Numbered from the stretch's first letter, positions 33,410 to 55,032 are shown. The stretch is 64,000 bases of DNA from an uncultured Phycisphaerae bacterium (GCA_947085435.1 CAMTWL010000031.1:76278-140277), one strand, 5' to 3'. Notes: a model not told the origin generated them from the sequence alone. Numbers and translations are program-made.

Positions 33410-33538
33410 GTAACTCTTCAGCCCCCTGCGATGACCGGTGCCGGCAGCGCGGGCGCGATCGGCGCTTCGCCCGGAGGGCGCTCGCAACGAACGCGCGCCC
33501 AAGGGGCGAAAAGGCGTTGCAGACGGCTGAAGAGTTAC
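33410..33538. mobile_element. short MITE (129 bp) with 15-bp TIRs GTAACTCTTCAGCNN.../...GCTGAAGAGTTAC and a 7/8 target-site duplication
   Basis: TIRs read directly. Flanks are gctttttc | ... | gcttcttc. Inserted immediately after the terminator T-run. Confidence 0.75.
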
Positions 33539-33646
33539 GCTTCTTCTATTCGGGTGGTACGGCCGCGCACATTTCGCGCCGAAATATTCGTGTTCGTCGG
33601 CGAATAACCGTTGACGGACGGCGACATGGTTGAAGAGGGTGGTAAG

Positions 33647-33949
33647 ATGTTGCTCGTCATGAAGATCGACGGCCCGACCAACCCGTTCCACATCTCTCGC
33701 GCGTACGGCGTGCGGTTGCCGGCGCGGGCGATCGAGCCGCTCCGTGTCGGACCCGCTCCGGCGGCGAGCGTCGAAGTCAACAACGCGTCGCGGCTGGTTG
33801 CGGCGTCGGTGCCGGGTCGCGTGGATTTTTCGGGTGATGTGCCGAGGCCTTCGGACTCGGCGGCGATCCCGATGTACCGTCACCCGGCGGACCGCAACGC
33901 GGCGGCGACGGCGGTCACCGCCGGTCGCACCATCGACGTGCGCGGTTGA
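33647..33949 (+). CDS. hypothetical protein
   Basis: 100-aa ORF with a GAGGGTGG SD before ATG 33647. No family. Could be non-coding. Confidence 0.3.
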   Translation: MLLVMKIDGPTNPFHISRAYGVRLPARAIEPLRVGPAPAASVEVNNASRLVAASVPGRVDFSGDVPRPSDSAAIPMYRHPADRNAAATAVTAGRTIDVRG

Positions 33950-33955
33950 GCCCGA

Positions 33956-34030
33956 GCATTCACCACGGAGTCGCGGAGGACGCCGAGTAGAACACCGACA
34001 GCCACAGATGACCCAGATAAGCCCAGATAG
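33956..34030. repeat. family-A arm (outer plus inner arm) whose partner at 34330-34360 is separated by a MITE insertion
   Basis: cattcaccacggagtcgcggaggacgccgag...ccacagatgacccagataagcccagatagcgg, with partner ctcatctgggtccatctgggtcatctgtggc at 34330-34360. Confidence 0.7.
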
Positions 34031-34056
34031 CGGAGCAGGGCAACCAAGGGATTTCG

Positions 34057-34294
34057 TATCTCTTCAGCGGAATGCAACGGCTTCCAAGCCTTCCCCAAAC
34101 GGAAGCGTGTTTCTTGTTCCGATCGCGTGGCGCCCCTTCGGGGTTCGGAAGAGGGTTAGTGGGGTTGCTTTCCGGGGGTGTCGAATCCCGGCGCGCCGGG
34201 ACACCCCCGGCTACTCTAGACCAGCCCTTCGGGCTGAAGATCAATTCATCTCAACACAATACGAACCTCCGCTTGCAAACGGCTGAAGAGTCAC
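34057..34294. mobile_element. full-length MITE (about 238 bp): TIRs GTATCTCTTCAGCGG / CGGCTGAAGAGTCAC enclosing the family-B core; 7/8 TSD
   Basis: Flanks gggatttc | ... | ggcatttc. The internal sequence is colinear with the copies at 45058 and 54811. Confidence 0.75.
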
Positions 34295-34411
34295 GGCATT
34301 TCAAACCCCGAATCTGGATCACTCCGGTCTCATCTGGGTCCATCTGGGTCATCTGTGGCATCTCTTCCAACTCGGTCGCCTCCGTGGCGAAAGGGAAGGT
34401 ATTCTTGGCGG

Positions 34412-35626
34412 ATGCGAAGTGACCTCCCCACGCCGCGCTTCAGCGTGTACGCCAAGTCGTGGATCCTCGATCCGCAGGTGGTGTTCCTGAATCACGGGTC
34501 GTACGGGGCGTGCCCGCAGCGGGTGCTGGAGTTTCAGCGGCATATTCAAGAGAAGATGGAGCGCGAGCCGTTGCGGTTCATGGGGACCGAACTGGAGCCG
34601 ATGCTCGATGCTGCTCGCGCGGACCTCGCGGCGTTCGTGAACGCCGATCCCGAAGGACTCGCGTTTGTCCACAACGCGACCAGCGCCGTGAACGCCGTGT
34701 TCCGCTCGATCGAGTTCAAGCCCGGCGACGAGGTGCTGACCAACAACCACGAGTACAACGCCTGCAACAACGCGCTCCGGTGGGTGGTGGGGCGCGAGTG
34801 CGGCGGGCAGGTGAAGATCAATACTGCGGAGGTGCCGTTCCCGCTGAAGTCGGCGGACGAGGTGGTGAGCGCAATCATGGGCGCGGTCACGCCGAGGACG
34901 CGGCTGGTGATGATCAGCCATGTGACCAGCCCGACGGCGCTCGTCTTCCCGATCGAGCGGCTCGTGAAGGGACTCGCGGCGCTCGGCGTGGACACCCTGA
35001 TCGACGGCGCGCACGCGCCGGGGATGGTCCCGCTGGACCTGAAATCGCTGGGCGCGACCTATTACGTCGGCAACTGCCACAAGTGGATGTGCTCGCCGAA
35101 GGGTGCCGGGTTTTTATACGTTCACGATTCGGCGCGGCGCGAGACGACCTCGCCCGTGGTCATCTCGCACGGGTTGAACTCGACTCGGAAGGATCGCTCG
35201 CGGTATCGGCTGCTCTTTGATTGGACGGGGACCGACGATTACACGGCGTGGCTGAGCGTGCCGGAGGCCATCCGCGCGATCGGGTCGATGATGCCGGGCG
35301 GCTGGCCCGCGGTGCTGGAATCAAATCACCGCAAGGTGCTGGCGGGGCGGGACACGCTGCTGCGGGTGCTGGGGGTGCCGGGGGGCGAGGTGCAAGCACC
35401 TGACTCGATGCTGGGTTCGCTCGCCACGGTGCCGCTGCCGGACGCGGTGAATGCGGAGGGGCAGCCGGATGAGCAACTCAGGGACCTGTACACCGTCCAC
35501 AAGGTCCAAGTGCCGGTGATCTCGCGGTATCACCCGAAGCGTTGGGTGCGGCTGTCGGCGCAGTTGTACAACGATGCGTCGCAGTACGAGTACGCGGCGG
35601 CGGTGCTGAAGCAACTGGTTTTGTGA
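34412..35626 (+). CDS. class-V aminotransferase (isopenicillin-N epimerase/cysteine desulfurase-like PLP enzyme)
   Basis: 404 aa from ATG 34412. FLNHGSYGACP, the HNATSAVN...GDEVL region, and the PLP-lysine motif NCHKWMCSPKGAGFLYV. Confidence 0.8.
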   Translation: MRSDLPTPRFSVYAKSWILDPQVVFLNHGSYGACPQRVLEFQRHIQEKMEREPLRFMGTELEPMLDAARADLAAFVNADPEGLAFVHNATSAVNAVFRSIEFKPGDEVLTNNHEYNACNNALRWVVGRECGGQVKINTAEVPFPLKSADEVVSAIMGAVTPRTRLVMISHVTSPTALVFPIERLVKGLAALGVDTLIDGAHAPGMVPLDLKSLGATYYVGNCHKWMCSPKGAGFLYVHDSARRETTSPVVISHGLNSTRKDRSRYRLLFDWTGTDDYTAWLSVPEAIRAIGSMMPGGWPAVLESNHRKVLAGRDTLLRVLGVPGGEVQAPDSMLGSLATVPLPDAVNAEGQPDEQLRDLYTVHKVQVPVISRYHPKRWVRLSAQLYNDASQYEYAAAVLKQLVL

Positions 35627-35651
35627 GCGTGTCCGGGTCGGGCCGGGGCCG

Positions 35652-36116
35652 CTACTCCGGGACTTCGAGCGCGTGCAGCGCGACCGCCGCCTCGTCCCAA
35701 CGGTCGTTCACTTCCTGGATGCTGGCGTCCGCGTCGGCGGAAATCGCTGAGGTCGCCTCTGCGGGAGAGCCGTACTTGACCAGGCCGCGCAGGCCGTTGG
35801 TCTCGGTGGTGTCGATCTTCGCGCGCGTCACGTTGGCGTGGTTCATGCCCGTCGTGATCGACTTGGCGATGTACGCGTTGATCAGCTCGGCCGACTGGCC
35901 CTTGGCGACCATCTTCCCAACCTTGACGGCGCACTTGGCGGCCAGGCGGTCGATCTTCTTGTCGTAACTCAGCACGGTCTTGTCGTACTTCACGAGCGTC
36001 TTGGCGACGATCTTGGCGACCTTGGCTTCGTCCTGCGCGTGGACCGGCGCGGCAAGGAACGCGAGCGCGACGGCCGCGACCACAAGGGACATGAACGATC
36101 GGATGCTGAGACTCAT
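35652..36116 (-). CDS. small secreted alpha-helical protein of unknown function
   Basis: 154 aa from ATG 36116 (AAGGAG SD). MSLSIRSFMSLVVAAVALAFLAAPVHAQ signal peptide. Lys/Ala-rich helical repeats. Confidence 0.55.
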   Translation of the reverse strand: MSLSIRSFMSLVVAAVALAFLAAPVHAQDEAKVAKIVAKTLVKYDKTVLSYDKKIDRLAAKCAVKVGKMVAKGQSAELINAYIAKSITTGMNHANVTRAKIDTTETNGLRGLVKYGSPAEATSAISADADASIQEVNDRWDEAAVALHALEVPE

Positions 36117-36212
36117 CGGGGCTCTCCTTCGTGCGTCGGACGGTGCCTGTGCGGGGTCCGCGTCGGCGGGTTTATCGTAGGTCTGTTCGAGCGGAGCGTC
36201 CACCCGGTTCCG

Positions 36213-36285
36213 ACGTGGCACGCCCTTTCCAGGGCGTGGGGGCTAACCGACACGGGCTGGAAAGCCCGTGCCACTTCAAACTGGG
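36213..36285. repeat. family-C palindromic element
   Basis: gtggcacgccctttccagggcgtgggggctaaccgacacgggctggaaagcccgtgccacttcaaactggg. Confidence 0.8.
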
Positions 36286-36464
36286 ACGCAGCCGAGCCTT
36301 CGCTCGAAGACTCCCGCCGCGGCGGGCAGGCTGCTCAGACTCGGCTTCTAATCGAGAAGAACAGAAAAAAACGGCCGTCGGGGAGTGCCCGACGGCCGTC
36401 GCCCCGCAAGCGGTGTCGCGCCCGCACAAGCACGCGGCCGCCTGGGGGTCATTCCCTTCGGGTT

Positions 36465-36908
36465 TTAGGGCTCGATGCCCGCGTCAGAGAGGGCCTGGTC
36501 GAGGTCCGCGAGGCACTCCGTGAGGTGCTGGTCGATCCGCACCTCGACGCGGCGCGCGGTGAAGTCGAGGGCGAACATGATCGTGCCCGCGTTCTCGGCC
36601 GTGGCGAACTTCGCTTCGAGCGAGCCGTGCATCTTGTCGAGGCTTGCGTGCGCCTTGCTCGCGATGGACGCCAGTTGCGCGCGGGCACGATCCGCCGCGG
36701 CGACGGCCTTTTCCGTCTTGCCCTTCGCGGCGGCTTTGTCGATCGCAGCGTCGGCGGAGGCGACCGCTTTCTGGGAGCGAGCGAGGGCGGCGTCGCCGAT
36801 GCGGTTGAGTTTGCCGATCGGTGGCGACGGCACGGCGGCGAACGCCGACGTTGCGAGGACGAGGATGATCGCGGCGGAACGGACGAGGGTGGTGGTTGAA
36901 AAGGCCAT
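36465..36908 (-). CDS. small secreted alpha-helical protein of unknown function (weak paralog of 35652-36116)
   Basis: 147 aa from ATG 36908 (AGGAG SD). Signal peptide MAFSTTTLVRSAAIILVLATSAFA. Ala/Lys-rich helices. Confidence 0.55.
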   Translation of the reverse strand: MAFSTTTLVRSAAIILVLATSAFAAVPSPPIGKLNRIGDAALARSQKAVASADAAIDKAAAKGKTEKAVAAADRARAQLASIASKAHASLDKMHGSLEAKFATAENAGTIMFALDFTARRVEVRIDQHLTECLADLDQALSDAGIEP

Positions 36909-37286
36909 GGGATGCTCCTGTTGATCCGAGAACCCCGCCGAGCCGGTCGCCGCGGCGACCGGCGCGGCGGGCCGCCTCGTGGATCGACGGGCGAAGGGAG
37001 CACGTTCAAGCGTCGGCGCTTTCCGGGTTGAGCGGGGCGTTGGTGGCGCGGATGGGTGAAGGGGCAAGGATTGCGCCCGGGCTGATAAAGAGGCGAGTGC
37101 GGAGTATCGGGCGGGTGGTTCTCGGGGCAGGCCGGCACCGTTCCGCTCACTTCGTTCGGGGCTCGTATGAGGGGTCATTGCATTCTGCCGAACAATTAAA
37201 AGGATTCAAGGGTGATCGGTGAAAAGAAAAAAACCGCGCCCTCGGGGGCGCGGCTCGTTGCGATTCTTCGGATCGATCGAGGCGGA

Positions 37287-40200
37287 TCAGAGGCAGTTGG
37301 TGTTGAAGTTCGCCAGCGTGGTGGTGATGTCGTTGAAGTCAACATCGCCGTCGTCGTCGGTGTCGCCGAGGCCCGTGCCGGGCGTGGGGAGGTAGTTGTT
37401 GCCGAAGTTGGCGAGGGTCGTGGTGATGTCGTTGAAGTCGACGTCGAGGTCATCGTCGGCGTCGCCCGGGCACAGCGGCGGGGCGGTGGGCCGGACCACG
37501 CCGTTGATCTTCACGTCGTCGATGTTCCAGCCGTGAAGGACGACCGAGCCGTCGGTTGTCCCCAGGTACCAGCGCAGGTAGACGGTCGGCTGGTTGTCCG
37601 CGACGGCGGAGATGTCGAAGGTGTGGAAGGACCAGGCGGTCTCGTTGAGGGTCGATCCGGCGTGGGCATAGAGGGTCGTCCACGTCGTGCCGTTGTTGGA
37701 GATTTCGATGCCCGCGCGGTCGAAGACGGCGCTCTCGATGCCGAGCCATCGGCGGTAGTCCATGCTGGTGAAGTACTTTCCGGTGAGGTCGATGGCGGGG
37801 GTCGTGGCGTTGATGCGCGGGAGGTTGTTGGTGTAGTCGCCCGCGAGGTTGTAGCCGACGACGTTGGTGCCCGTGAATCCGGCGGCGGGGTCGCCGCTGA
37901 GTCCCTGGGGAACGCCGTAGGCCCAGCCCGCGCCGAGCGTCCAGCCCGGATTGGTGTCCATGTTCCAGTTCACGATGACCTGCGGGGTTCCCACCCTGAC
38001 GGTGACGGTGGCGGTGCCCGAGTCGGTGAAGTCGTTGCACTTGTAGGTGAAGGAATCGGGGCCGACGTAGAGGGCGTTGGGCTTGTAGTTCGCGACCGCG
38101 CCGCCCGAGAGGAGGACATAGGGGACGGCGCTGATGATCCCGCCGTTGGGATCGCGGACGGTTCCGTTGGCCGGGAGCGAGAGGATGGTGTAGGTGAGGG
38201 GCGAGTTAGTAGTCGAGACGCCCTGGAGCGTGATCGGCGAGATGATGGTGTCGGGGACGGTGGCGGCGAAGTTCTTCGCGGTGGGCGGGCATGGGGCACC
38301 GCTCTGGGCGATCTTGAGTTTCCACTGGTCGAGGGTGCCGACGTCCGCGCCCGCGAGGTCTTGGACGCGCATGGTCCAGATTCCCTGCGCTCCCTGGCCG
38401 TTGAAATCGTTGAGCGAGCCGGGGCCGTCGGGGTTGACGACGCCCTGGTCGTAGGTTTTGTGGATGTTGTCGGCGCTGCCTCCGGTGCGGTTGTGGAGGC
38501 GGACGATGGTGCCCGAGGGGGCGGTGAGTTCAACGACGAGGTCGCCGATGAAGGTGTGGGTGAGGTCGAGTTGGACGTCGATGTCCCCGATGCAGAAGGC
38601 GTCGGCGACGTTGAGGGTGCTCGTGATGCCGGGGTTCGGGCTGTCGGGGATGAAGATCGGGGGGCCGCCGTAGGTGTAGGTGTAGCGTCCGACATCGAGG
38701 GTGACGGGGCGTGTGGTGCCGCCGCTGCCGCCCGAATCGTTGGTGAAGTTCACCGTTCCGATAGAGAGGCCCGCGCCGAGGGCGTTGGCGGCGGCGGAGA
38801 ACCCGGCGATGACAACGCGCGCATCGCCCGTTCCCGTAAGGGTGAACGACGAAGAGGCGAGGCCGTCGGCGGCGATCCACGGGGCGCTGCCCGCGACCGT
38901 GACGTTGACGGGTGTGGGCTTGGTGCTGGTGACGATGTAGGCCTGGGTTGCGGAGAAGGGTCCGCCGACGGGTCCGCCGCCGAGGAGGCCGGTCGCAGGC
39001 GTGACCGAGATTCCGGTGGTTCCGGCGTCGATGGAGTGATTGCGGGTGAACGGGATGCCGTTGGTCGTGTCCTGGAAGAGGACGGTGGTGAGGTAGAAGC
39101 CGGCGGGGAGCGACGAGGCCGAGGCATCAACCGCGATCGTGACCATCGTCGAGGTCATGCCGGCGAGCGTGCCCATCACGGGGCCTGCGCCGCCGTTCAT
39201 GGTGAGCGGGGCCGTGCCGCCGGGGACGAAGGAGACGCTGTAGTTGACGGGGGTGGGTGTGCTGTTGTTGAGGACATAGATGACGGAAGAAGGCGAGAAG
39301 GGACCGCCGAGAAGGCCGAGGTGGTTGGTGTCGCCGGCGGGGGCGACGTCGAGGCCCTTGCCGAGGGTGTCGACGAACATGGCACCGGTGCTGGTGGGGT
39401 CGAGCCAGTCGGAGAGTCGGGTGGCGGATGTGCCGCCGCCGATCCACGATCGGCTGACCCGGCCGTAGCAGTCCGAACGGTTTGCGCCGGTCTGCGAGCA
39501 GGCCGAAGGCCCGCCGTGGAGTTGTCCGATGATGCGTTGGTTGTTGTCGTAGAGGGGCGAGCCTGACGAGCCGGGCTCGGTGACGCCGAGCGACCAGTAA
39601 ACGCTGATGTGTGAGTTATCGCCGGGGCCGGGGGCGGCGCTGCAGCCCCACGATGAGCCGTGCGACGGCGCGAAGGAGCCGCCGAAGGTGTCGTAGAAGG
39701 AGATTCTTTTTTCGGCGACCTGCGGGTGATGGATGGCCGCGCCGCTGGCGGGGTTCAGCCCCTCGCGGCTCCAGCCCGCGAAGGTGACGCCCCACGCCGC
39801 GTTCGGCGCGGTGTTCACCTGCACGAGGCAGAAGTCGGAGACGGCGACCGCGGCGCGGAACGTCGCGCCGGAAGAGAACTGCGCGAGCGAGCCGTCGCCC
39901 GCGCCGCCGCTGTCGCCCGAGCCGGGGATGCGGCAGTAGGAGTTCTGGAAGTTCCAGTAGATGACCATGGTGCCCGCGTCGCCCGCGTCGATGCCGCAGT
40001 GGTTGGCGGTCAGGAAGTAAGGCGTCCGGTTGTTCGACGTGTTGTTGACCATCGAGCCGGAGCAGGTGTCCGAGCCGTTGAGCGTGTACGCGCCCGCGGC
40101 GTCGATCTCGTCCGCCCAGGGGTTGCCTTCCGGGCATTCGACATCGACGTTGCACGAGCCGGAGGTGCCGCGCTCATCGTCGGGTGCGGCGCTCGAACCA

Positions 40201-40802
40201 AATCGACGGAATCCCGAGCCGATCTGTCCCAGGCGCAGGCGCATCTCGGCGATCCGCTTCTCGGGGATCAGCACCTCGATGACGACCTCGTCCGAGTTCA
40301 GGATGGGAGTCCAGAGTTGGCTCGCCGGGGTGTTGTCGGCGGAGGTGAAGGGGCGGATGACCTCCGCGCCGTCGGGCGTCAGGATGGTCATCGACGCGCC
40401 GGGAGGCATGTGATAGTCGGTGAAGCCGAGGTTGATCGAGAGCGCGCCGTCCGAGCCGACGCGGAGGCGCCACATGTGGGTGCCGTCTTTCAGAACTTCC
40501 CAGGTGCCGGCGTTCTCGGGCGAGTAGTTGACGCGGACGGGGATCGCAAAGCGCAGGGGGAGGCCGACCTCGACATTGCGGTTGGATTGCTCCATCGCGG
40601 CGGCGAAGTCGAGTTCGTCGGTCTGCACCTTGTCCACGTCCTTGAGCCCCCGGACATCCTCCGAGAGCGACATCGGGCGCGCTTCGGGGCTGACGCCGAC
40701 GGAGGCATACGGCTGCTCCGCCCAGGTCACGCCCGACAGCAAGGCCACCACCGCTGCGGATGAGCACACGCGGCGCCACGCACGAGAAACACTTTGCATC
40801 AC
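37287..40802 (-). CDS. secreted multidomain serine endopeptidase: trypsin-like S1 domain plus proprotein-convertase P-domain, with two C-terminal dockerin-like repeats
   Basis: 1171 aa with a signal peptide. The catalytic-His motif LTANHCG and catalytic-Ser motif EPGSSGSPLYD of lysyl-endopeptidase-like S1 peptidases. P-domain (FIGDLVVELTAPSGT...WTMRVQD). C-terminal DxDVDFNDITTTLANF repeated twice. Confidence 0.8.
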   Translation of the reverse strand: MMQSVSRAWRRVCSSAAVVALLSGVTWAEQPYASVGVSPEARPMSLSEDVRGLKDVDKVQTDELDFAAAMEQSNRNVEVGLPLRFAIPVRVNYSPENAGTWEVLKDGTHMWRLRVGSDGALSINLGFTDYHMPPGASMTILTPDGAEVIRPFTSADNTPASQLWTPILNSDEVVIEVLIPEKRIAEMRLRLGQIGSGFRRFGSSAAPDDERGTSGSCNVDVECPEGNPWADEIDAAGAYTLNGSDTCSGSMVNNTSNNRTPYFLTANHCGIDAGDAGTMVIYWNFQNSYCRIPGSGDSGGAGDGSLAQFSSGATFRAAVAVSDFCLVQVNTAPNAAWGVTFAGWSREGLNPASGAAIHHPQVAEKRISFYDTFGGSFAPSHGSSWGCSAAPGPGDNSHISVYWSLGVTEPGSSGSPLYDNNQRIIGQLHGGPSACSQTGANRSDCYGRVSRSWIGGGTSATRLSDWLDPTSTGAMFVDTLGKGLDVAPAGDTNHLGLLGGPFSPSSVIYVLNNSTPTPVNYSVSFVPGGTAPLTMNGGAGPVMGTLAGMTSTMVTIAVDASASSLPAGFYLTTVLFQDTTNGIPFTRNHSIDAGTTGISVTPATGLLGGGPVGGPFSATQAYIVTSTKPTPVNVTVAGSAPWIAADGLASSSFTLTGTGDARVVIAGFSAAANALGAGLSIGTVNFTNDSGGSGGTTRPVTLDVGRYTYTYGGPPIFIPDSPNPGITSTLNVADAFCIGDIDVQLDLTHTFIGDLVVELTAPSGTIVRLHNRTGGSADNIHKTYDQGVVNPDGPGSLNDFNGQGAQGIWTMRVQDLAGADVGTLDQWKLKIAQSGAPCPPTAKNFAATVPDTIISPITLQGVSTTNSPLTYTILSLPANGTVRDPNGGIISAVPYVLLSGGAVANYKPNALYVGPDSFTYKCNDFTDSGTATVTVRVGTPQVIVNWNMDTNPGWTLGAGWAYGVPQGLSGDPAAGFTGTNVVGYNLAGDYTNNLPRINATTPAIDLTGKYFTSMDYRRWLGIESAVFDRAGIEISNNGTTWTTLYAHAGSTLNETAWSFHTFDISAVADNQPTVYLRWYLGTTDGSVVLHGWNIDDVKINGVVRPTAPPLCPGDADDDLDVDFNDITTTLANFGNNYLPTPGTGLGDTDDDGDVDFNDITTTLANFNTNCL

Positions 40803-41051
40803 ATCAATCTCCCGGTCGAGCGCGGCGTGCCCGGGGTGAACAACACCCCAAGCCCGGCCCGACCCGTTCCAAAATAAATCCCTTCCTCAAGGCAGCCAGA
40901 CCGCCCGTCCGCCTTCCGTCCGGTGTTCAGTATGCAGCGGATTGGCCGATATGCAACGGCGGAAAGGCCGGATAGCGGTCGAAACTCAACTTTTTTGACC
41001 CAATTTCGGGCGGAGGTCGTCACCCAGTGTCAGCCCCGGTCGCATTTTTGG

Positions 41052-41168
41052 TGGTGTCTCAGTTTGGAGTGGCACGGGCTTTCTCGGAGAGTCGCCGCGG
41101 AGACCAGACCGTGTCGGCTCGCCTCACGGTCGCCGCGGCGACCGTGCCACATTCAAACTGAGAAACCA
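41052..41168. repeat. family-C element with TIR-like ends GGTGTCTCAGTTTGGAGTGGCAC / GTGCCACATTCAAACTGAGAAACC
   Basis: Read directly. The internal palindrome core is GAGAGTCGCCGCGGAG...GTCGCCGCGGCGACC. Confidence 0.8.
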
Positions 41169-41300
41169 CCTGCGCCGACGCGTGCTTCTCCGCCCAGGCC
41201 AATGGTTATGGGCCGCCCCCGCGATCTCCAGAGCGAACCGGAGCCGGAGAGGGCGACCGCTCCGGCCCCCCGGGGGCACCGGGGCGCTGCGCGATGGCGA

Positions 41301-42412: not shown

Positions 42413-43537
<1,125 letters not shown>

Positions 43538-43606: not shown

Positions 43607-43734
43607 GTTGACGTGGCACGGGCTTTCCAGCCCGTGTCTTCGGTGGTACGGGCTTTCTCGGAGAGTCGCCGCGGCGACCGTGACGCGGGGGACACGGGCT
43701 AGAAAGCCCGTGCCACATTCAAACTGAGACACCA
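43607..43734. repeat. family-C element flanked by 14-bp direct repeats CACAACTTTGAGTG
   Basis: Direct repeats at 43593-43606 and 43735-43748. The internal sequence is gtggcacgggctttccagcccgtg...gagagtcgccgcggcgaccg...gtgccacattcaaactgagacac. Confidence 0.8.
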
Positions 43735-45027: not shown

Positions 45028-45057
45028 CCGGAGGGGATCATGAAGCACGCGCTCCCT

Positions 45058-45301
45058 GTAACTCTTCAGCGGAATGCAACGACCGTTTCTCCAAACGGGC
45101 CTGTGGTGTTTGGTTCCGATCGAGTGGCACCCCTTCGGGGTTCGGAAGAGGGTGCGTGGGGTTGCTTTCCGGGGGTGTCGCGGACTCCACCCCCGGCTAC
45201 TGTAGACCAGCCCTTCGGGCTGAAAACAAAGGCATTTCAAGAGCGCACGAACCTCGGGTCGCCGCAGCGACTCGTAGATTTGCAACCGGCTGAAGAGTTA
45301 C
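45058..45301. mobile_element. full-length MITE (244 bp, TIR GTAACTCTTCAGCGG...CCGGCTGAAGAGTTAC)
   Basis: Colinear with 34057-34294, and inverted relative to the copy at 54811-55032. Flanks cgctccct | ... | ctctccct (7/8 TSD). Confidence 0.8.
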
Positions 45302-45309
45302 CTCTCCCT

Positions 45310-46231
<922 letters not shown>

Positions 46232-46484: not shown

Positions 46485-48116
46485 ATGGGCTATATCTCGA
46501 TTGTCATCGGCGCGTTGGTCGCGGGGGCGCTGCTCAGCACTGTTCAGCGGCTCCCGACCTCGAGCGCCCGCGGGGCCGTCGCGGGGTTGTCTCTCCTTGT
46601 CTTTGCGCTCGGCGTGCTTCTCTCGTCGATCCGCTACGTTCCCGACGATCGAATGGGGGTGGTCAGCAAGAACGCGCTCGGGCCGCAACTTCCGCCCGAG
46701 AAGATCATCGCGACGTCGGGCGAGATGGGGCCTCAGGCGCGGGTTCTCCCGCCGGGCTGGCACCTCTGGTACTGGCCCGTCATCTTCGACATCGAGACCC
46801 ACTCGGTCACCGTGATCGACGCGGGGCAACTGGGCCTCATCAAGACAAGCGACGGCCTGCCGCTCCCGGAGGGGCAGATTTACGCGCCGGAATGGGACCC
46901 CGCGACGTTCCAGCAGATGCTTGATGCGCAGCATTTTCTGACGGCGGGGAAGGGGTTCAAGGGCCCGCAGGCCGCCGTCCTGACGCCCGGAACCTACCGC
47001 CTCAACCCCAGACTGTACGAGATCAAGAAGGTCCCGGTGACGAATATCTCCCCCGCGAGCGTGGGGGTGGTCAAGGCGAACGTAGGAGAGACGCCGCCGG
47101 CGGATCGTCAGGGGCACGGGCTGCTGGTGGACAAGGGGCAGCGGGGGGTGTGGCGCGAGCCGTTGTCGCCGCAGCAGTACTACCTCAACAGCGAGGCGTA
47201 CGAGGTGACGGTGATCTCGACGAAGGCGCACGTCGTTGAATACACGGCCCAGCGCGGCCCGGCGAACCAGCGCGAGATGGGCGGCGAGATCGGCGAACGC
47301 GAGATACAGGTCCGTTCCGCCGACGGGTTCACCTTCCCCGTGGACGTGCGGGTCGAGTACCTGATCGACACGCAGAACGCGCCGCTGGTGGTGGCGACGC
47401 TGAAGGACGATCAGGATTCGTTGCAGCAGGTGCTGAACTCCGCAGTGCGCGCGATCTTCCGCAACTCGGCGGAGCGCGTGAAGGCCCTCGACTATGTGCA
47501 GCAGCGGTCGCAGCAGGAGAAGCAGGCCCTCGAAGCCCTCTCGAAGGAGATGAGCAAGTACGGCGTGACCGTCGCCGCCGTCCGCATCGGCAACATCGGC
47601 GATGAGCAGAGCCTCGGCCTGCTGCTCAAAACCCAGACTGATCGCGAGATCGCGCAGCAGGAGCAGCGGACGTTCCAGGAGCAGCAGAAGGCCGCGGAGC
47701 AGAAGAAGGCGCTGACCCGCACCGTTCAGGAAGCGGAGGAAGAGAAGCGTCTGGCGACGGCCAACTACCAGACCAAGATCGCCGAGCAGGAGAAGATCAG
47801 GAAGATCATCGAGGCGAACGCGGAGGCGGAGTCCATTCTGGTCAAGGCGGAGGCGCAGTCGAAGGCGTTTGCGTCGATCGCGAAGGAGATCGGGCGGAGC
47901 AACTCCGCGTTGCTCGAACTGATGAAGATCGTGGGCGAGCGCGGGATCCAGATCACGCCGAGGGTGATGATCTCGGGGCAGGTGGCCGGGGGGCAATCGC
48001 CGGAGACGGTGGCGCTGATCGGGACGATGCTGGACTCGATGATGGATCGCGCGCCCGCGGACCCGGGGTTGCCGGCGGCGGCGGGGACGGCTCCCGCCGG
48101 GCCGAAGCAACCGTAG
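46485..48116 (+). CDS. SPFH/band-7 flotillin-like protein (YqiK/FloT family)
   Basis: 544 aa. N-terminal TM, SPFH domain, and a long Glu/Gln/Ala/Lys-rich coiled-coil 'flotillin' region. Confidence 0.75.
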   Translation: MGYISIVIGALVAGALLSTVQRLPTSSARGAVAGLSLLVFALGVLLSSIRYVPDDRMGVVSKNALGPQLPPEKIIATSGEMGPQARVLPPGWHLWYWPVIFDIETHSVTVIDAGQLGLIKTSDGLPLPEGQIYAPEWDPATFQQMLDAQHFLTAGKGFKGPQAAVLTPGTYRLNPRLYEIKKVPVTNISPASVGVVKANVGETPPADRQGHGLLVDKGQRGVWREPLSPQQYYLNSEAYEVTVISTKAHVVEYTAQRGPANQREMGGEIGEREIQVRSADGFTFPVDVRVEYLIDTQNAPLVVATLKDDQDSLQQVLNSAVRAIFRNSAERVKALDYVQQRSQQEKQALEALSKEMSKYGVTVAAVRIGNIGDEQSLGLLLKTQTDREIAQQEQRTFQEQQKAAEQKKALTRTVQEAEEEKRLATANYQTKIAEQEKIRKIIEANAEAESILVKAEAQSKAFASIAKEIGRSNSALLELMKIVGERGIQITPRVMISGQVAGGQSPETVALIGTMLDSMMDRAPADPGLPAAAGTAPAGPKQP

Positions 48117-48131
48117 TGCGGCCTCGGTTCA

Positions 48132-48188
48132 GGTGGAGCAGGCATCTCGAAGAGTCGCCGCGGAGACTCTTCGAGATGCCTGCACCAC
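48132..48188. repeat. near-perfect 57-bp palindrome (family-C core)
   Basis: ggtggagcaggcatctcgaagagtcgccgcggagactcttcgagatgcctgcaccac. Confidence 0.85.
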
Positions 48189-48256
48189 ACCGAACCGCGG
48201 CACATGAACTGATACGGATTCCATTTCGATCATGCGCGAAGTTGTGATTGAAGCGT

Positions 48257-48360
48257 GCGGCCGCCGACGCCCCCTCCGCCCTCGCAGACTCCCGCCGCGG
48301 CGGGTGAACTTGCACCTCCCCCGCTGGGAGCGGGGGAGGAGGCTCCAACACCGCGCGGGG
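48257..48360. repeat. direct repeat copy 2 downstream of the flotillin gene
   Basis: gccgccgacgccccctccgccctcgcagactc...cacctcccccgctgggagcgggggaggaggctccaacaccgcgcgggg. Confidence 0.8.
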
Positions 48361-48671
48361 ACTATTTGGATTCCGTATGAATCCGCTCCATGGATCAAGG
48401 AGACTTACCGCGGGTACGTTGCGGGTGGCAAGTCCACGGGATGCTCGTTGCGCATCCTGAGCGTGTGGGGTTCGGAGGTGGTTGGGTGTTGGTTTGGTAG
48501 TTCTCGGGCGTTGGGGTCAGATTGAATCGCATTCTTGGCGGGAGGGTTGGAACTGTCCGTTGGCTCCCAGCGAAAGGACTGGGTGGCCCCCACTAAACGG
48601 AGGCCGAGAAGGGACGAGGCGACCGCTCGCGTGCCGGTTGTTCGCTGCTGCCTTTCCGCAGCATTTGGTAT

Positions 48672-50204
48672 ATGAGCACCTTGAAGAGTCAACCATCGAC
48701 CGCCGCTCGATTGCCTGCGTTGACAGGTGGGAGCGGGGGGTCTAGTTTGGCCTCGGGTGCAGTGACCGATTCTCCAACTCCATCGCGGCCGGGCGTGAAC
48801 GCGACTTCGCAGAGCGAGGAGTCGCGGTTGCCTTTGCCGGGCGAATCCGCGTCGGCGGCGTCGGCGGTGCCCGGAGCGGGTGGGAAACGACCAAACGCGG
48901 GCGACACCGCCGAGATCGTCACGGGGAAGCAAGGTCAGAAAGCGGATGAGAAGTCGGGCGGCTCCAACGGGGGCTCGATGATCGACAGCATCGTGGGCCG
49001 GTTGGTGGTCGAGCAGGGGCTGGCGACTCGGGATGAGGTGGAGTCGATCCGCAAGCGGAAGGCCGTCGAGACGAATGAGCGGTCGTTCTCCCAGGCGCTC
49101 GTCGATGAGCGCCTCGTCACCGAGCGGCAGTTGTCACGGCTTCGTTCGATGGTCGAGCAGGAACGTTCCGGCTCGACGATCCCGGGCTACAAAGTTTTGG
49201 AGAAGTTGGGTGCCGGGGCGATGGCGACCGTGTTCAAGGCGAAGCAGTTGAGCCTGGACCGGATGGTGGCGATCAAGATTCTGCCGCGGAAGTTCTCGAG
49301 CAACCCGCAGTTCATCGAGCGTTTCTACGCCGAGGGGCGGGCGGCGGCGCAGTTGAACCATCCGAACATCGTGCAGGCGTTCGACGTCGGCCAAGCCGGT
49401 GAGTTCCACTACTTCGTGATGGAGTATGTGGAGGGCCAGACGGTGCACGACCTGATCGTCGCGAACAAGCGGTTCAACGAGCAGGAAGCGCTGGACATCG
49501 CAATCAGCGTGGGCGAGGCGATGGACCATGCGCACATGAAGGGGCTGATTCACCGCGATATCAAGCCGAAGAACATCATGTTCACGCCTCAGGGTGTGGT
49601 GAAGGTGGCGGACCTGGGTCTCGCGCGGGCGATCGGCGACAAGGAAGCGGCGGAGGCGGAGCAGGGCAAGGCCTACGGCACGCCGTACTACATCTCGCCC
49701 GAGCAGATCCGGGGCGAGATGAACATCGGTCCTCAGGCGGATATTTATTCGCTCGGGGCGACGATGTACCACATGGTGACGGGGAGCGTGCCGTTCAACG
49801 GCAAGAACCCCGGCGAGGTGATGCAGAAGCACCTGAAGGCGCCGCTGATCCCGCCGGACCATGCGAACCCCAAGTTGAAGGCGGGGATCAGCGAGGTGAT
49901 CGAGCGGATGATGGCCAAGAGCCGCAAGGATCGCTACAAGAACTGCCAGGAGTTATTGATCGACCTGCGTGCGGTGCGTCGGGGCGAGCCGCCGCCGATT
50001 GCGCACCGGGAAGCGCCGGCGTCGGCGGTGCTGGAGGCGTTGAAGACGTCCGAGGCGTTGCCGGGGGCGATCCCCGAGGATCGGTCGCAGCGCGGGGTTC
50101 AGACCAAGACCAATCCGATCATCGTGTATGTGCTGGTCGGTGTGGTGTGCTACGCGTTCATCATGACGATCATGTTCATTTTGAGCCTGATGACGAAGCG
50201 ATAA
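48672..50204 (+). CDS. Hanks-type Ser/Thr protein kinase with N-terminal GspE-N-like domain and C-terminal TM anchor
   Basis: 510 aa. Kinase subdomains GAGAMATVFKA, AIK, HRDIKPKNIMF, DLG, and the SPEQ activation loop. C-terminal hydrophobic helix. Confidence 0.8.
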   Translation: MSTLKSQPSTAARLPALTGGSGGSSLASGAVTDSPTPSRPGVNATSQSEESRLPLPGESASAASAVPGAGGKRPNAGDTAEIVTGKQGQKADEKSGGSNGGSMIDSIVGRLVVEQGLATRDEVESIRKRKAVETNERSFSQALVDERLVTERQLSRLRSMVEQERSGSTIPGYKVLEKLGAGAMATVFKAKQLSLDRMVAIKILPRKFSSNPQFIERFYAEGRAAAQLNHPNIVQAFDVGQAGEFHYFVMEYVEGQTVHDLIVANKRFNEQEALDIAISVGEAMDHAHMKGLIHRDIKPKNIMFTPQGVVKVADLGLARAIGDKEAAEAEQGKAYGTPYYISPEQIRGEMNIGPQADIYSLGATMYHMVTGSVPFNGKNPGEVMQKHLKAPLIPPDHANPKLKAGISEVIERMMAKSRKDRYKNCQELLIDLRAVRRGEPPPIAHREAPASAVLEALKTSEALPGAIPEDRSQRGVQTKTNPIIVYVLVGVVCYAFIMTIMFILSLMTKR

Positions 50205-50315
50205 CCCGATTTGGGCCTGCGTGGCCGCGATTCGGGTCTAATCTTCTCGAACTCTACAATCCTAACGGCCGATAAAAGGATCGGTACCCCACCCGCTGTT
50301 CAAGGAGGCATCGCA

Positions 50316-50963
50316 ATGGAACTGTACATCGACACCGCGAATCTGGATGAGATCAAGCAGGCCGTGGACATGGGCGTGCTCGACGGCGTGACGACGAACC
50401 CGTCGCTGATCGCGAAGGAGAAGGTTGACTACGGCAAGCGGCTGTCGCAGATCTGCGAGGTGGTCGAGGGGCCGGTGTCGGCGGAGGTGATCGCCATCGA
50501 TTACGCGGGGATGATGAAGGAAGGGCGCGAGCGCGCCAAGATCGCCGACAACATCGTGGTGAAGCTGCCCTGCACGGTGGACGGCGTGAAGGCGTGCAAG
50601 GCGTTCACGGATGAGGGGGTGCGGACGAATCTGACGCTGTGCTTCCAGCCGCTGCAGGCGCTGCTGGTGGCCAAGGCGGGTGCGTTCCTGGTCAGCCCGT
50701 TCATCGGGCGCGTGGACGACATCGCGGAGGACGGGATGGACCTCATCCGCCGCATCCGGCAGATCTACGACAACTACGGGTACGAGACGAAACTGCTCGC
50801 GGCCAGCGTTCGGCACCCGAAGCACATCGTTGACTGCGCGCTGGCGGGGGCCGACGCGTGTACGGTGCCGTTCAACGTGATCCAGCAGATGATGAAGCAC
50901 CCGCTGACGGATTCGGGGCTGGAGAAGTTTGTGGCGGATTACAAGAAGGCGTTCGGGGGCTGA
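50316..50963 (+). CDS. fructose-6-phosphate aldolase/short transaldolase (TalC/FsaA family)
   Basis: 215 aa from ATG 50316 (AAGGAGG SD). MELYIDTANLDEI, GVTTNPSL, and the Schiff-base Lys region VVKLP. Confidence 0.85.
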   Translation: MELYIDTANLDEIKQAVDMGVLDGVTTNPSLIAKEKVDYGKRLSQICEVVEGPVSAEVIAIDYAGMMKEGRERAKIADNIVVKLPCTVDGVKACKAFTDEGVRTNLTLCFQPLQALLVAKAGAFLVSPFIGRVDDIAEDGMDLIRRIRQIYDNYGYETKLLAASVRHPKHIVDCALAGADACTVPFNVIQQMMKHPLTDSGLEKFVADYKKAFGG

Positions 50964-50994
50964 AGCCGACGATGCTGCCGGCGGGCGATGGCAC

Positions 50995-51300
50995 TCACTC
51001 GCTCGCCGTTGGGAAAGCGTGCTGGATGTCGCGTGCCGTATGCAGAATACGAGCGATGCTGAGAGGTCGTGTGTCTTCGTAGAAAAGATAATACGAATGG
51101 ACCCTCCAGACCCGGAACGGTTCTGGGGCGAGGTCGGTTCGGTGTGACCCCATCCTCGGCGATGAGGTCAGCCGGACTATTTCATCGTGGATATCCGCAA
51201 GAATCCGATCGGCGACCGCCCACCCCGCGACCGTTGCGAGGTAGGACCATATCTCGTGCAGATCGGCCTCCGCATCGCGCGAGAGGACAAAGCCAGTCAC
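50995..51300 (-). CDS. parE: ParE/RelE-family type II toxin
   Basis: 101 aa. A..DL.EIW.Y....W...A.R....I...I..L...P..G....DL....RVWRVHSYYLFYE...PLSIARILHTARD. Confidence 0.7.
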   Translation of the reverse strand: MTGFVLSRDAEADLHEIWSYLATVAGWAVADRILADIHDEIVRLTSSPRMGSHRTDLAPEPFRVWRVHSYYLFYEDTRPLSIARILHTARDIQHAFPTASE

Positions 51301-51575
51301 GATGCGGCCCGGCGGAACTCGGGGCTTCGAGCCCGGATTTCGTCGAAAACCTTCTCGCCTTCCACGATCTCGCCACGGCGTATTTGTTCGATGCCGTGGG
51401 CGATTTTGGCTCGGACTTCCGCCAGCGCCGACTTCCGCTCATCTTCTTGAGAGCGCAGGACGCGGAGCGCGTCGCTGACAACCTCGCTGGCGTTGACGTA
51501 GCGACCCTTTCGCAGTTGCTCGTCAACGAACTGTTGCCATTCAGGTGCCAGGTTGACTTGCATAAGCGTCTCCAA
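51297..51575 (-). CDS. parD: ParD-family type II antitoxin
   Basis: 92 aa. NASEVVSDALRVLRSQE RHH motif. 4-nt overlap with parE. Confidence 0.7.
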   Translation of the reverse strand: METLMQVNLAPEWQQFVDEQLRKGRYVNASEVVSDALRVLRSQEDERKSALAEVRAKIAHGIEQIRRGEIVEGEKVFDEIRARSPEFRRAAS

Positions 51576-51628
51576 CGCGGGGCGAGTAAACGATAGGGGC
51601 TCTGGAGGCGCCCGACCACTGATGACCG

Positions 51629-52099
51629 TTATTCGACCTCAAAGATAAACTCCACCTCCACCGGCGCCCCCAGCGGCAGGCTCGGTGCTCCCACGGCGGC
51701 GCGGACGTGCTTGCCGGCTTCTCCCAGGAGCGCAACAAGGAGATCGCTGGCGCCGTTGGCGACTTTGGAGTGCTCGGTGAAGCCGTGCTCGCAGGCGACG
51801 AAGACGCCGAGGCGGACGACGCGACGGATCTTGGCGAGGTCGCCGATCTCCGCTTCGAGGGCGGCCAGTCCGTTGAGCACGCACTGGCGGGCGCATTCCT
51901 GCGCTTGTTCCAGAGTGACGGCGTTGGGGACGGTGCCGGCGGCGATGAGCGAGCCGTCGCGGAAGGGAACCTGGCCGGCGATGAAGACGAGGCGCGAGGC
52001 GGGGCCGACCGAGACGGCGGGGATGTACGAGGCGACTGGTTTGGCAGGTTTGGGAAATGTCAGGTTCAATTTAGCGAGTTGCTCGCGGACGGTGGGCAT
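51629..52099 (-). CDS. ridA: RidA/YjgF-family reactive-intermediate deaminase
   Basis: 156 aa from ATG 52099. YIPAVSVGPASRLVFIAGQVP...IRRVVRLGVFVA...VEVEFIFEV. The longer track ORF upstream is an artefact. Confidence 0.8.
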   Translation of the reverse strand: MPTVREQLAKLNLTFPKPAKPVASYIPAVSVGPASRLVFIAGQVPFRDGSLIAAGTVPNAVTLEQAQECARQCVLNGLAALEAEIGDLAKIRRVVRLGVFVACEHGFTEHSKVANGASDLLVALLGEAGKHVRAAVGAPSLPLGAPVEVEFIFEVE

Positions 52100-52481
52100 G
52101 GTGGTGTTCCGTTTGGGTGAAAATTTTGACGGGTGTTGGGAACCGTGGGGATTGACATTCGTAGAGTGGTTGATATCGTAGTGATATCGAGATGGTGAGC
52201 GCGGGCCGGAAATCCTTTCCGACCGATCACATGCACTGATTCCCATATTTCCGTTATCCGGAAAGGGAAGAGGTCCGCCGCAAGCCGACAACCTGTTCAA
52301 GACGCCTGCGTGGCTTGGTTGGCCATGTGTCGGTGTCGGCCCCCCGGACAATCTGGAGCGGTTTTCCTTGATGGTTCTCGTCGAAGGAGGCTCTCGTGTC
52401 CGCCGTGAGGCTCGTTGAATGTGCTTGTCGATCCGGTCCCGGGAAAGGGGCCGGTGTGGACGTTTTTTACGGAGACTCGCC

Positions 52482-53528
52482 ATGAAGACCGGTCGGAATC
52501 GCGGCTTTACGCTGATCGAGTTGTTGGTGGTCATTGCGATCATCGCGCTGCTCGTCGGCATCCTCCTGCCCGCACTGGGCAAGGCCCGCAAGAACGCTCA
52601 GCAACTGAAGGACGGCACGCAGGTGCGCGGCATCATGCAGGCGATGACGAGCTGGGCGTCGGACAACCGGCAGAAGTTCCCGGTCCCAAGCGCCGCCGAC
52701 GCCAACAACCAGACGGTTGTGAGTAACTTCAAGAACCGCACCGGCAGCATCCTCTCTCTGATGATCTGGAACCAGACCATTACGCCCGAGTTGTGCGTGA
52801 GTCCGGCCGAGGCCGGCAAGTCGGTGCCGTACACCGACTACCAGTATTCCAGCCCCGCCGGCTCGCAGCAGTTACGCGAAGGCAAGTACGCGGTGTACGA
52901 CCCCCGTTTCCTCGGCTCCCCTCAGGACAACCTGGATATCGAAGGCGTGATGAACGCCCCGCCTGCGGTCGGTGCGCCGCCGTCGCGCACGGCCCACAAC
53001 TCCTACGCCCACAACTGCATCGAGGGCGCCCGCAAGACCAACTGGAGCAGCACGCTGAACGCTTCGCAGGCGGTGGTCGGCAACCGAGGGCCTCTCTATG
53101 TGGAGGTCGCCACCCCGAACTTCGCGGCCAACCAAACATGGACGCTCACGACCGCACAGCTCACGCGGTACGGAGCGTCGTCCGAAACGCTCTTCATCCA
53201 CGGCTCCGAGAACAAGTGGGAGGGCAACGTCGCGTTCGGCGACGTCCACGTCGAGTTCCAACTTCAGCCCGACCCCGAGACCGCGACCTTCGTCGATCGA
53301 CAGGGGCAGACGAATCCGGTCAACGAGCGTGACAACCTCTTCGTCGATGAGACGAACGAGGGGACCGATCCCGCGTCGTTCCAGACGCGCAAGAACGCCT
53401 TGCTCCGCATCTGGAAGCAGGGCATCCCCGTCCCGACCGTTCCGAACACGCCGAGCATCCCCTTTACCGAAGATTTCGTCACGCTCATGCAGGGCAGCAG
53501 CGAGTACATCTGGATCGACGGGCAGTAA
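52482..53528 (+). CDS. DUF1559/prepilin-type N-terminal domain protein
   Basis: 348 aa from ATG 52482, starting [37 protein letters not shown]-terminal H-X9-DG-like motif (HGSENKWEGNVAFGDVHV). Confidence 0.75.
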   Translation: MKTGRNRGFTLIELLVVIAIIALLVGILLPALGKARKNAQQLKDGTQVRGIMQAMTSWASDNRQKFPVPSAADANNQTVVSNFKNRTGSILSLMIWNQTITPELCVSPAEAGKSVPYTDYQYSSPAGSQQLREGKYAVYDPRFLGSPQDNLDIEGVMNAPPAVGAPPSRTAHNSYAHNCIEGARKTNWSSTLNASQAVVGNRGPLYVEVATPNFAANQTWTLTTAQLTRYGASSETLFIHGSENKWEGNVAFGDVHVEFQLQPDPETATFVDRQGQTNPVNERDNLFVDETNEGTDPASFQTRKNALLRIWKQGIPVPTVPNTPSIPFTEDFVTLMQGSSEYIWIDGQ

Positions 53529-53600
53529 GCCGTTCCTAACCGAAGCGACACCCCCGCCGCCGGCTTCCGCCGGGGCGGTGCGAAAGGAGTTCGACGAACC

Positions 53601-54680
53601 ATGACTCACACGAATCGAAGGGGCTTCACGCTCATCGAGCTGCTGGTGGTGATCTCGATCATCGCGCTGCTGATCGGGCTGCTCCTCCCCGCGCTCGGCA
53701 AGGCCCGGCGGAACGCGCAGCAGATCAAGGACTCGACGCAGGTCCGAGGGCTGCACCAGGGCTGCATGGGCTGGGCCCAGGACAACAGGGAGCGGTACCC
53801 GCTCCCATCGGTCCTCGACATGAACAACCTGACGGAACTCAAGCCGGTCGGCAGCGGTTCACCGAGCAAGAACCGAACCGGCAACATCCTCTCTTTGATG
53901 CTCTTCAACAAGATCATCTCGCTCGAACTGTGCGTGAGCCCCTCGGAATCGTCCAACCGCATCCAGGCGATGACGGACAACGAGTATGACTTCCGGAACC
54001 CCGACGGCGCGGTGACCTATGCCCCGGTGGGCACCCGGGCATCGGTGGCGGTGTACGACCCCGACTTCCGCGGCTCGCCCAAGGAACAAGACGATCGCAC
54101 CTTTGGCATTCATACCGGCGGCGACAAGAGCCTGGGCAACAACTCGTATGCTCATAACGCGCTCGCCGGCCAGCTGCGCCTCGAGGCCTGGTCTTCGATT
54201 TACCAGGTCTCGACGGTGCCGGTCTGGGCCAACCGTGGCCCGGTGTACGTCGTCTCCCCCCGTCCGCTTCCGGGCAGCGACGGCGAATGGATACTCGTGG
54301 CGGGCCCGACCGGCTTGGAATCGAACACGCTCCTCATCCACGGCAGCAAGGACGCCTGGGAGGGCAACGTGGCGTACAACGACGGCCACGTCGTCCTGGA
54401 GGACAGGCCGAATCCCAAGGAACTCTCCTACGAGGTTCAGGGGGCGGTCAGCGCCTTCGACAAGGACAACCTCTTCGTTGACGACGCGAACGAGCACGCC
54501 GGGACCAGCGACTCCACGCCGGACATCGAGGAGCGCCGCAACGCGCTCTTCCGCATCTGGCGTCAGGGCATCCCCGACCCGCTGACTCAGGAGAACGCCG
54601 CACTCCTCGGCGACCAGCACCTCGGCGGGAACACCGGCAACGGAACCGGGCCGTGGGTCTGGGTTGATGGGCAGCCCTGA
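53601..54680 (+). CDS. DUF1559/prepilin-type N-terminal domain protein (paralog of 52482-53528)
   Basis: [51 protein letters not shown], then [18 protein letters not shown]. Confidence 0.75.
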
Positions 54681-54810
54681 GTTTCGAGCGATCGTAAGAT
54701 TCGGCACCTGATGCGGCGGCCTTCGAGGTCGCCGCTTTTTTTCATCGAATCGCGAGGAGGAGTGTTCGACACTTCGCCCAGAGCGGCTCGGTGTCGGCTC
54801 TTCGATCCTT

Positions 54811-55032
54811 GTAACTCTTCAGCCGTTTGCAAACCGAGGTTCGTGCTCTATTGAAATGCCTTTGTTTTCAGCCCGAAGGGCTGGTCGTTCGTAGCCGGGG
54901 GTGGAGTCCGCGACACCCCCGGAAAGCAACCCCACGCACCCTCTTCCGAACCCGAAGGGGTGCCATGTGATCGGAACGAGTTACTACGGGCCCGTTTGGA
55001 GAAGAGGTCTTTGCATTCCGCTGAAGAGTTAC
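54811..55032. mobile_element. MITE copy (222 bp) with a perfect 8-bp target-site duplication CGATCCTT
   Basis: ...ttcgatcctt|GTAACTCTTCAGCCG...CGCTGAAGAGTTAC|cgatccttcaacg. Inverted orientation relative to 45058-45301. Confidence 0.85.

Follow-up and report, generated by a model that had tools for sequence, protein, structure and literature searches.

Short non-coding elements of a Phycisphaerae genome as probable passengers of a single-ORF IS66-family insertion sequence

Introduction

A stretch of 64,000 nucleotides from an uncultured Phycisphaerae bacterium (GCA_947085435.1, CAMTWL010000031.1:76278-140277), referred to here as the window, contains between positions 33410 and 55032 four short elements that share inverted terminal sequences and are flanked by direct repeats of 8 bp. 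Three of them enclose a structured repeat, termed family B, which is also found on its own, and two are inverted relative to each other around a segment of 9.5 kb. The NuoD protein of the source contig clusters at 90% or more with "Phycisphaerales bacterium" MAG proteins. The locus raises the question of which mobile element supplied the ends, how the structured repeat is related to them, and whether the enclosed segment is itself mobile. We find that the four elements are very probably non-coding passengers, i.e. [quoted passage not shown]

Four elements with common ends and 8-bp duplications

The elements are delimited by an imperfect terminal inverted repeat (TIR) of about 22 bp, GTAACTCTTCAGCSGNNTGCAA. 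All four lie at the sites given by a first-pass annotation of the sequence, except that the second copy starts at 34056 on direct reading of the interval and not at 34057. The annotation had also correctly recognized a shared TIR, although it gave its length as 15 bp. The 15-mer GTAACTCTTCAGCSG, with up to two mismatches, matches the window nine times compared to 0.08 expected matches. With the 22-mer GTAACTCTTCAGCSGNNTGCAA and up to three mismatches eight matches are obtained (0.00 expected), which correspond to both ends of the four elements. The ninth match of the 15-mer at 61432 failed the 22-mer test and has no partner, and was therefore treated as chance. The elements are as follows:

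33410-33538, + strand: short MITE, 129 bp, without family-B core; duplication 33402-33409 GCTTTTTC / 33539-33546 GCTTCTTC, 7/8 positions identical
34056-34294, + strand: long MITE, 239 bp, family-B core at 34125-34246; duplication 34048-34055 GGGATTTC / 34295-34302 GGCATTTC, 7/8
45058-45301, + strand: long MITE, 244 bp, family-B core at 45122-45232; duplication 45050-45057 CGCTCCCT / 45302-45309 CTCTCCCT, 7/8
54811-55032, - strand: long MITE, 222 bp, family-B core at 54859-54968; duplication CGATCCTT at 54803-54810 and 55033-55040, 8/8

Within each element the two ends agree at 17-19 of 22 positions. The ends of the 33410 copy read GTAACTCTTCAGCCCCCTGCGA and, as reverse complement, GTAACTCTTCAGCCGTCTGCAA; one is canonical, the other is diverged, and the GC-rich interior between them is unrelated to anything else. 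Each of the three long copies combines one canonical with one variant end (GTAACTCTTCAGCGGAATGCAA). In the 45058 copy the variant forms the left end and the right end reads GTAACTCTTCAGCCGGTTGCAA as reverse complement. We denote the variant end of this 222-244-bp lineage as GCGGAATGCAA. The long copies align end to end (MAFFT) with 84-93% identity over aligned columns and 19-43 gapped columns. Alignment and the family-B model place a B core inside the TIRs of all three, and the mutual inversion of the copies at 45058 and 54811 is seen both in a repeat-pair search and in the alignment; both features had been annotated in this way. Since the long copies are only 84-93% alike, the insertions in the window look old.

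The flanking 8-bp duplications, perfect at 54811 and matching at 7/8 positions at the other three copies, were likewise as described, and the probability of a flank match of at least 7/8 by chance is 3.8e-4 per element. With lengths of 129, 239, 244 and 222 bp the elements stay below the approximately 500 bp expected of MITEs and have no coding capacity for a transposase; they possess TIRs, and the duplication has a fixed length at 4/4 copies.

The parent insertion sequence in related genomes

From the length of the duplication a parental IS of a family such as ISL3, IS256 or IS66 had been proposed, to be sought as an autonomous IS with matching TIRs. An IS of this kind, 1.52-1.64 kb in length, was found in related Planctomycetota metagenome-assembled genomes (MAGs), and its transposase domains and the shared ends identify IS66 as the right family among the three. 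One genome per species was scanned with the 21-mer GTAACTCTTCAGCSGNNTGCA. At least 98 stretches carry the repeat, and about 91 of the matches listed are Planctomycetota MAGs, mostly Phycisphaerae. Among these listed matches, ten loci show facing ends at a distance of 1520-2236 bp, nine of them at 1520-1640 bp. In the four loci with ORFs listed (L053, L056, L033 and L070) the interval of 1520-1640 bp is filled by a single ORF of 489-526 amino acids. This ORF scores 133-137 bits against the Pfam domain DDE_Tnp_IS66 (PF03050, cut-off 23.1), about 30 bits against zf-IS66 (PF13005, cut-off 27.3) and 264 bits against the NCBIfam model transpos_IS66 (NF033517, cut-off 180). The accessory genes tnpA and tnpB are absent, and because there is no space for either of them between the ends, the parent IS is assigned to the single-ORF ISBst12 group of the IS66 family.

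Both ends of the planctomycete IS read GTAACTCTTCAGCCGTnTGCAA and begin with 5'-GTAA, and the stop codon of the transposase gene is located inside the right end (...GCAAACGGCTGA / AGAGTTAC). GTAA ends together with duplications of 8-9 bp define the IS66 family in the ISfinder description. Complete IS copies in L043, L094 and L051 are flanked by perfect 8-bp duplications. Seven further insertions could be rebuilt across contig breaks in two fragmented MAGs by pairing left-end and right-end contigs with reverse-complementary 8-mers, again with perfect 8-bp duplications, where 0.03 would be expected by chance. One Phycisphaera MAG contains 14 left ends and 10 right ends that are identical over 75 nt, so that the IS is probably multicopy and recently active in this genome. 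In the CAZYEX and CAZJTP Phycisphaera(ceae) MAGs dozens of contigs end 30-140 bp inside the IS, which makes it a major cause of assembly breaks in these two MAGs.

Transposition has been demonstrated experimentally for a member of the ISBst12 group, ISDge4 from Deinococcus geothermalis, which has the ends GTAACTGCTCAGCA, an 8-bp direct repeat and a single transposase of 449 amino acids (PMC12898284). The end of the planctomycete IS agrees with that of ISDge4 at 11 of 14 bases. It also resembles the ISBst12 group in that it has a single ORF, DDE_Tnp_IS66 and zf-IS66 domains and GTAA ends, measures about 1.5-1.6 kb and is flanked by an 8-bp duplication. In contrast, the stop codon in the right end is a feature of the planctomycete IS, and the window contains non-coding derivatives only. 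MITEs and IS resemble each other solely over the terminal 22-24 bp or so.

Related MITEs elsewhere and proposed mechanism

MITEs with the same ends were found at further loci, with lengths of 172 bp (L071), 235 bp (L039 and L050), 403 bp (L093) and 272 bp (L102); their duplications match at 8/8 positions three times and at 7/8 twice. The 235-bp MITEs, both from one Phycisphaeraceae MAG and with perfect duplications, agree with the long copies of the window in their variant end, B core and right-hand segment. Variant-end MITEs are also present in metagenome contigs, for example L102, which has a 7/8 duplication, and L103 (303 bp, degenerate B). Because the same chimera occurs in the Phycisphaeraceae MAG and in metagenomes, comparison of these copies indicates that the long lineage either predates this genome or has passed between genomes. 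Averaged over 18 duplications, the GC content is 0.47, compared to 0.64 for the window, which suggests that insertion prefers AT-richer targets.

A metagenome contig (Ga0209181_10406543, L105) contains at 249-1068 four head-to-tail variant-end halves of a related MITE at a spacing of about 183 bp. After each unit come CATTTTT[A/C] and a GTAG-tagged hairpin, and the arrangement represents a tandem array and not single insertions. On a second contig (Ga0105046_10219773, L103) related MITEs at 358 and 1792-2094 flank a DUF1559-type gene, and copies in L104 also adjoin such genes. This proximity may reflect only the abundance of these genes in Planctomycetota.

In their short, non-coding and multicopy build, their IS-matching ends and their duplication of fixed length, the elements correspond to bacterial MITEs in general, such as RUP, Correia/NEMIS, ERIC, Nezha and MITEPsy, which are likewise located between genes or at gene ends and have interiors that fold. 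They differ in their parent, an IS66-family IS of the ISBst12 group, and in the interior of the long form, which is a captured independent repeat and not a remnant of the IS. We found no report of IS66-derived MITEs or of any Planctomycetota MITE family in the literature searched, ISfinder being outside this search.

The following mechanism is proposed. An IS66-type DDE transposase, provided in trans by a full-length copy, would recognize the TIRs of about 22 bp (GTAACTCTTCAGCCGTnTGCAA) and join the element to target DNA opened by cuts that are staggered by 8 bp; repair of the stagger would give rise to the 8-bp duplication. Targets would tend to be AT-richer than the genome, as for example the T-runs of terminators. 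The window contains two lineages: the 129-bp form, in which likeness to the IS is limited to the terminal 22-24 bp or so, and the 222-244-bp form with one variant end (GCGGAATGCAA), whose interior is a captured copy of the three-hairpin family B, which resembles repetitive extragenic palindromes (REPs).

Several observations weigh against this assignment. A search of the 64-kb window with the L053 transposase (tblastn) returned no full-length IS or transposase, the best E-value being 0.4; the absence of a parental IS had already been stated in the first-pass annotation. Complete IS copies in L053, L056, L070 and L006 lack matching flanks, which could result from recombination between copies or from assembly chimeras. 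The copies in the window diverge by 7-16% in addition to insertions and deletions, and three of the duplications contain a mismatch, so that these copies may no longer be mobile. An empty site, finally, is seen at the protein level and none at the level of strains.

Insertion sites of the MITEs

The elements are inserted into a terminator, another repeat, a gene and an intergenic region. The features concerned, together with a third repeat family, are:

33374-33403, + strand: stem-loop of an intrinsic terminator, 13 pairs; its T-run is the target of the 33410 MITE
5938-6100, 7647-7831, 25143-25342, 27595-27757, 28258-28316 and 33948-34380: family-A copies, the last of which hosts the 34056 MITE
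45040-46074, + strand: DUF1559 / prepilin-type N-methyl gene, whose leader codons are split by the 45058 MITE; read-through ORF of 344 amino acids
20208-20271, 22376-22412, 36249-36279, 41065-41128, 43611-43718 and 48132-48168: third repeat family

The position of the 33410 copy in the T-run of a terminator, noted before, is borne out by the 13-pair stem in front of it, and the insertion leaves a run of five T intact. The 34056 copy is nested in a family-A hairpin, as had also been proposed: it is located in the loop between arms at about 33948-34041 and 34310-34380. After removal of the MITE and one duplication the loop amounts to about 53 nt, which is a normal length and similar to the copy at 7620-7860. 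Family A comprises long intergenic hairpins of about 150-200 nt with CAGAG/CTCTG-rich and CCCAGAT-rich arms and variable loops. The third family consists of palindromes GTGGCACGGGCTTTC...GAGTCGCCGCGG, which give spurious Rfam 'mir-3160' matches. Rfam "microRNA" matches obtained at the E-value threshold were rejected, as they represent generic long hairpins of other repeat families. The 54811 copy is located between the convergent DUF1559 and rpsG genes.

The insertion at 45058 was found in a coding sequence. The MITE and one duplication together comprise 252 bp, i.e. 84 codons, which follow codon 6 of the DUF1559 gene without a shift of frame, and the frame stays open. Because of this in-frame position in the leader codons, the NCBI-sourced protein of 344 amino acids (P0001) corresponds to the read-through product and contains 84 MITE-encoded residues. 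Reconstruction of the protein without the insertion results in 260 amino acids. In the seven nearest homologues (BLASTP identity 55-72%, 254-263 amino acids) the stretch of 84 residues is absent in 7/7, and 8-22 residues precede the (A/G)FTLIELLV motif. As judged from these protein sequences, the homologues represent an empty site at the protein level. Two starts are possible for the gene, either ATG 45040 with a leader of 98 residues or TTG 45310 with the leader MGHHPRLA. The database entry for this DUF1559 protein thus contains MITE-translated residues as an artefact of protein prediction.

Family B as a three-hairpin repeat

The long MITEs have family B as their core, a repeat of about 119 nt that forms three hairpins. 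With a covariance model of 10 copies, eight strong copies and one weak copy are detected in the window. Three of the strong copies are located in the MITEs listed above and the other five have no inverted repeats:

1074-1192, + strand: family-B copy without inverted repeats, flanked by convergent genes
14613-14732, - strand: family-B copy without inverted repeats
25822-25934, - strand: family-B copy without inverted repeats, 5'-truncated
28398-28566, + strand: family-B copy without inverted repeats; hairpins 1-3 contain insertions
29767-29885, + strand: family-B copy without inverted repeats, three hairpins, within lnt; not a MITE

At other loci the model detects 16 copies, many of them outside any TIR pair. 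Five copies in both orientations lie within about 1 kb in L090 (1175-2098), the L077 MITE contains two tandem copies, and B is also present in L093. The repeat is thus distributed over Phycisphaerae. Its covariation is strong: in an alignment of 24 copies 94% of the cells are paired, compared to 32-54% in slid controls, and both sides change in 11 of 18 pairs; since the alignment was fitted to the model, these values lean somewhat towards structure.

The copy at 29767-29885 lies in frame in lnt (ORF 28613-30412, minus strand), the gene for apolipoprotein N-acyltransferase. The approximately 40 residues that it encodes (HRLLQPEGLIYSSRGSSESSSVTPGNLSPQTSSAPRRGAPQ) separate the LNT_N from the CN_hydrolase domain, at a place where solved Lnt structures are about 45 residues shorter. 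In being intragenic and in frame it resembles the Rickettsia palindromic elements (RPEs). A 16-bp palindrome, TCCCGGCGCGCCGGGA, occurs three times in the window, at 25814-25829, 30490-30505 and 34186-34201. The last of these is an extra insert that the 34056 MITE has in the loop of its B hairpin 2; the first adjoins the B copy at 25822. This very small palindrome may be mobile or recombinogenic.

Comparison with Acido-Lenti-1 and REPs

At the gathering threshold no Rfam family matched. Below it, hairpins 2-3 of B reach 30.8, 30.0, 25.2 and 23.9 bits against Acido-Lenti-1 (RF01687), all under the gathering score of 37, with 30.8 bits for the copy at 29767. Acido-Lenti-1 is itself multicopy, and its function is not known (PMC2864571 supplement). 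Both consist of two hairpins separated by GGCUA and a 12-nt linker, a correspondence that we regard as a lead only.

GTAG-tagged REPs are reported from the PVC superphylum (Di Nocera et al. 2013, PMC3733652). When read on the opposite strand, hairpin 2 of B likewise consists of GTAG followed by a GC-rich stem-loop, again a lead only. In 8/8 copies of the window hairpin 2 is directly adjoined by GGCTAC, which is GTAGCC on the reverse strand; in the alignment of 24 copies only about 14 have the CTAC tag. B copies are scattered and in places form clusters with both orientations, as do GTAG-tagged REPs and bacterial interspersed mosaic elements (BIMEs). Unlike REPs, which measure 20-40 bp, B is a composite of three hairpins with about 119 nt. 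A REP-associated tyrosine transposase (RAYT) was not detected, as there was no Y1_Tnp match among 10 ORFs tested, including neighbours of B copies. Inspection by eye shows that the seed sequences of Acido-Lenti-1 also read as GTAG-tagged stem-loops on the opposite strand. Because of this likeness to B, Acido-Lenti-1, listed in Rfam as small RNA (sRNA), may be a REP-like DNA repeat.

Alternative explanations

In the first-pass annotation the B copies without TIRs were regarded as decayed MITEs, which would make B the MITE's own core. The constant orientation of B relative to the variant end, in the three long MITEs of the window as well as in those of L039, L050 and L077, would be expected in this case. 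However, we consider such an origin very improbable, since no remnant resembling the repeat lies within 200 nt of the copies without TIRs, even at 5/15 mismatches. The MITE interior outside B is absent from them too, with BLAST likeness confined to query positions 55-154. Their three best cores reach 97-124 bits (the other two 61-85) compared to 112-120 bits for MITE-borne cores, so that decay would have to have affected the ends alone. Moreover, other MAGs contain B copies free of inverted repeats, among them the cluster of five in L090, the L077 MITE has B twice in tandem, and short MITEs with the same ends (the 33410 copy, L071 and L089) have no B. A comparable hairpin-GGCUA-hairpin architecture, that of Acido-Lenti-1, is found in other phyla. 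Given TIR-less copies with neither an end remnant nor MITE interior and short MITEs without B, we conclude that B is an independent repeat that was captured by one MITE lineage. The long MITEs might instead be kept by the host for use of the B module, as RNA stabiliser, terminator, protein-binding site or, for the DUF1559 gene, source of a new start or leader, and so be more than selfish relics. The covariation in B is typical of a selected structure, yet it is equally expected for a DNA hairpin recognized by a REP-type transposase. Compared to shuffled versions, the complete 45058 MITE has a more stable fold (z = -3.2), but a scan of this copy revealed neither a sigma-70-like promoter nor a terminator. 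B persists in frame within lnt and the MITE frame is open in the DUF1559 gene; against this, we estimate that an 84-codon frame would be open by chance at this GC content in about 1 of 10 cases, and the orientation of B relative to neighbouring genes is inconsistent. A role for the host is thus unlikely.

The inverted pair at 45058 and 54811 had led to the proposal that the 9.5 kb in between could invert or move as a composite unit. The two copies are 93% identical over aligned columns, the outer ends of both are intact, and the outer flanks CGCTCCCT and CGATCCTT agree at 6/8 positions. Nevertheless, each copy has its own duplication, with 7/8 positions matching at 45058 and 8/8 at 54811. Recombination between the copies would have parted the two halves of each duplication, which speaks against a past inversion, and composite transposition would be expected to leave a duplication only on the outer flanks, where just the 6/8 match is seen. 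GC content (0.61-0.65) and skew of the block are like those of its flanks, and a foreign origin was rejected on these grounds. It contains ordinary chromosomal genes, namely those for a kinase, a transaldolase-family aldolase, ParD, RidA and DUF1559 proteins. The Logan contig L099 (ERR3478710), which stems from the same genome, has an identical internal order and breaks inside the 54811 MITE. As no sign of past movement emerges from duplications, outer flanks and composition, it is most improbable that the pair and the block form a present or past composite transposon or invertible segment. Future recombination between the copies, with 93% identity over about 220 bp, is possible, though not favoured. 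The last 100 nt or so of gap (GAPDH) at 43430-43530 are repeated with 92% identity at 46121-46221, 2.69 kb downstream and just past the DUF1559 gene. The 2.7 kb between these repeats, with two small ORFs, the MITE and the DUF1559 gene, may be an old insertion or the scar of a duplication.

Conclusions

Beside the assignment of the elements to MITEs of an ISBst12-group IS stands a broader idea, which we regard as doubtful. According to it, the long MITE would be a working chimera, in which an IS66-type DDE transposase mobilizes a REP-like module that normally spreads by other means, and B and Acido-Lenti-1 would form one ancient class of REP-like repeats, GTAG-tagged on the opposite strand, in the PVC superphylum and Acidobacteria. 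If this were true, the MITE would be a second vehicle carrying a REP-like module between genomes, and the repeats would be such as tolerate in-frame insertion, as seen in lnt and the DUF1559 gene.

The finding itself concerns ISBst12-group MITEs in Phycisphaerales whose dominant lineage has a REP-like structured repeat as cargo. It provides a rare case of MITEs derived from a little-studied IS group and leaves the accepted workings of such elements unchanged. A repeat that breaks many Phycisphaerae assemblies is hereby very probably given a family and a mechanism.

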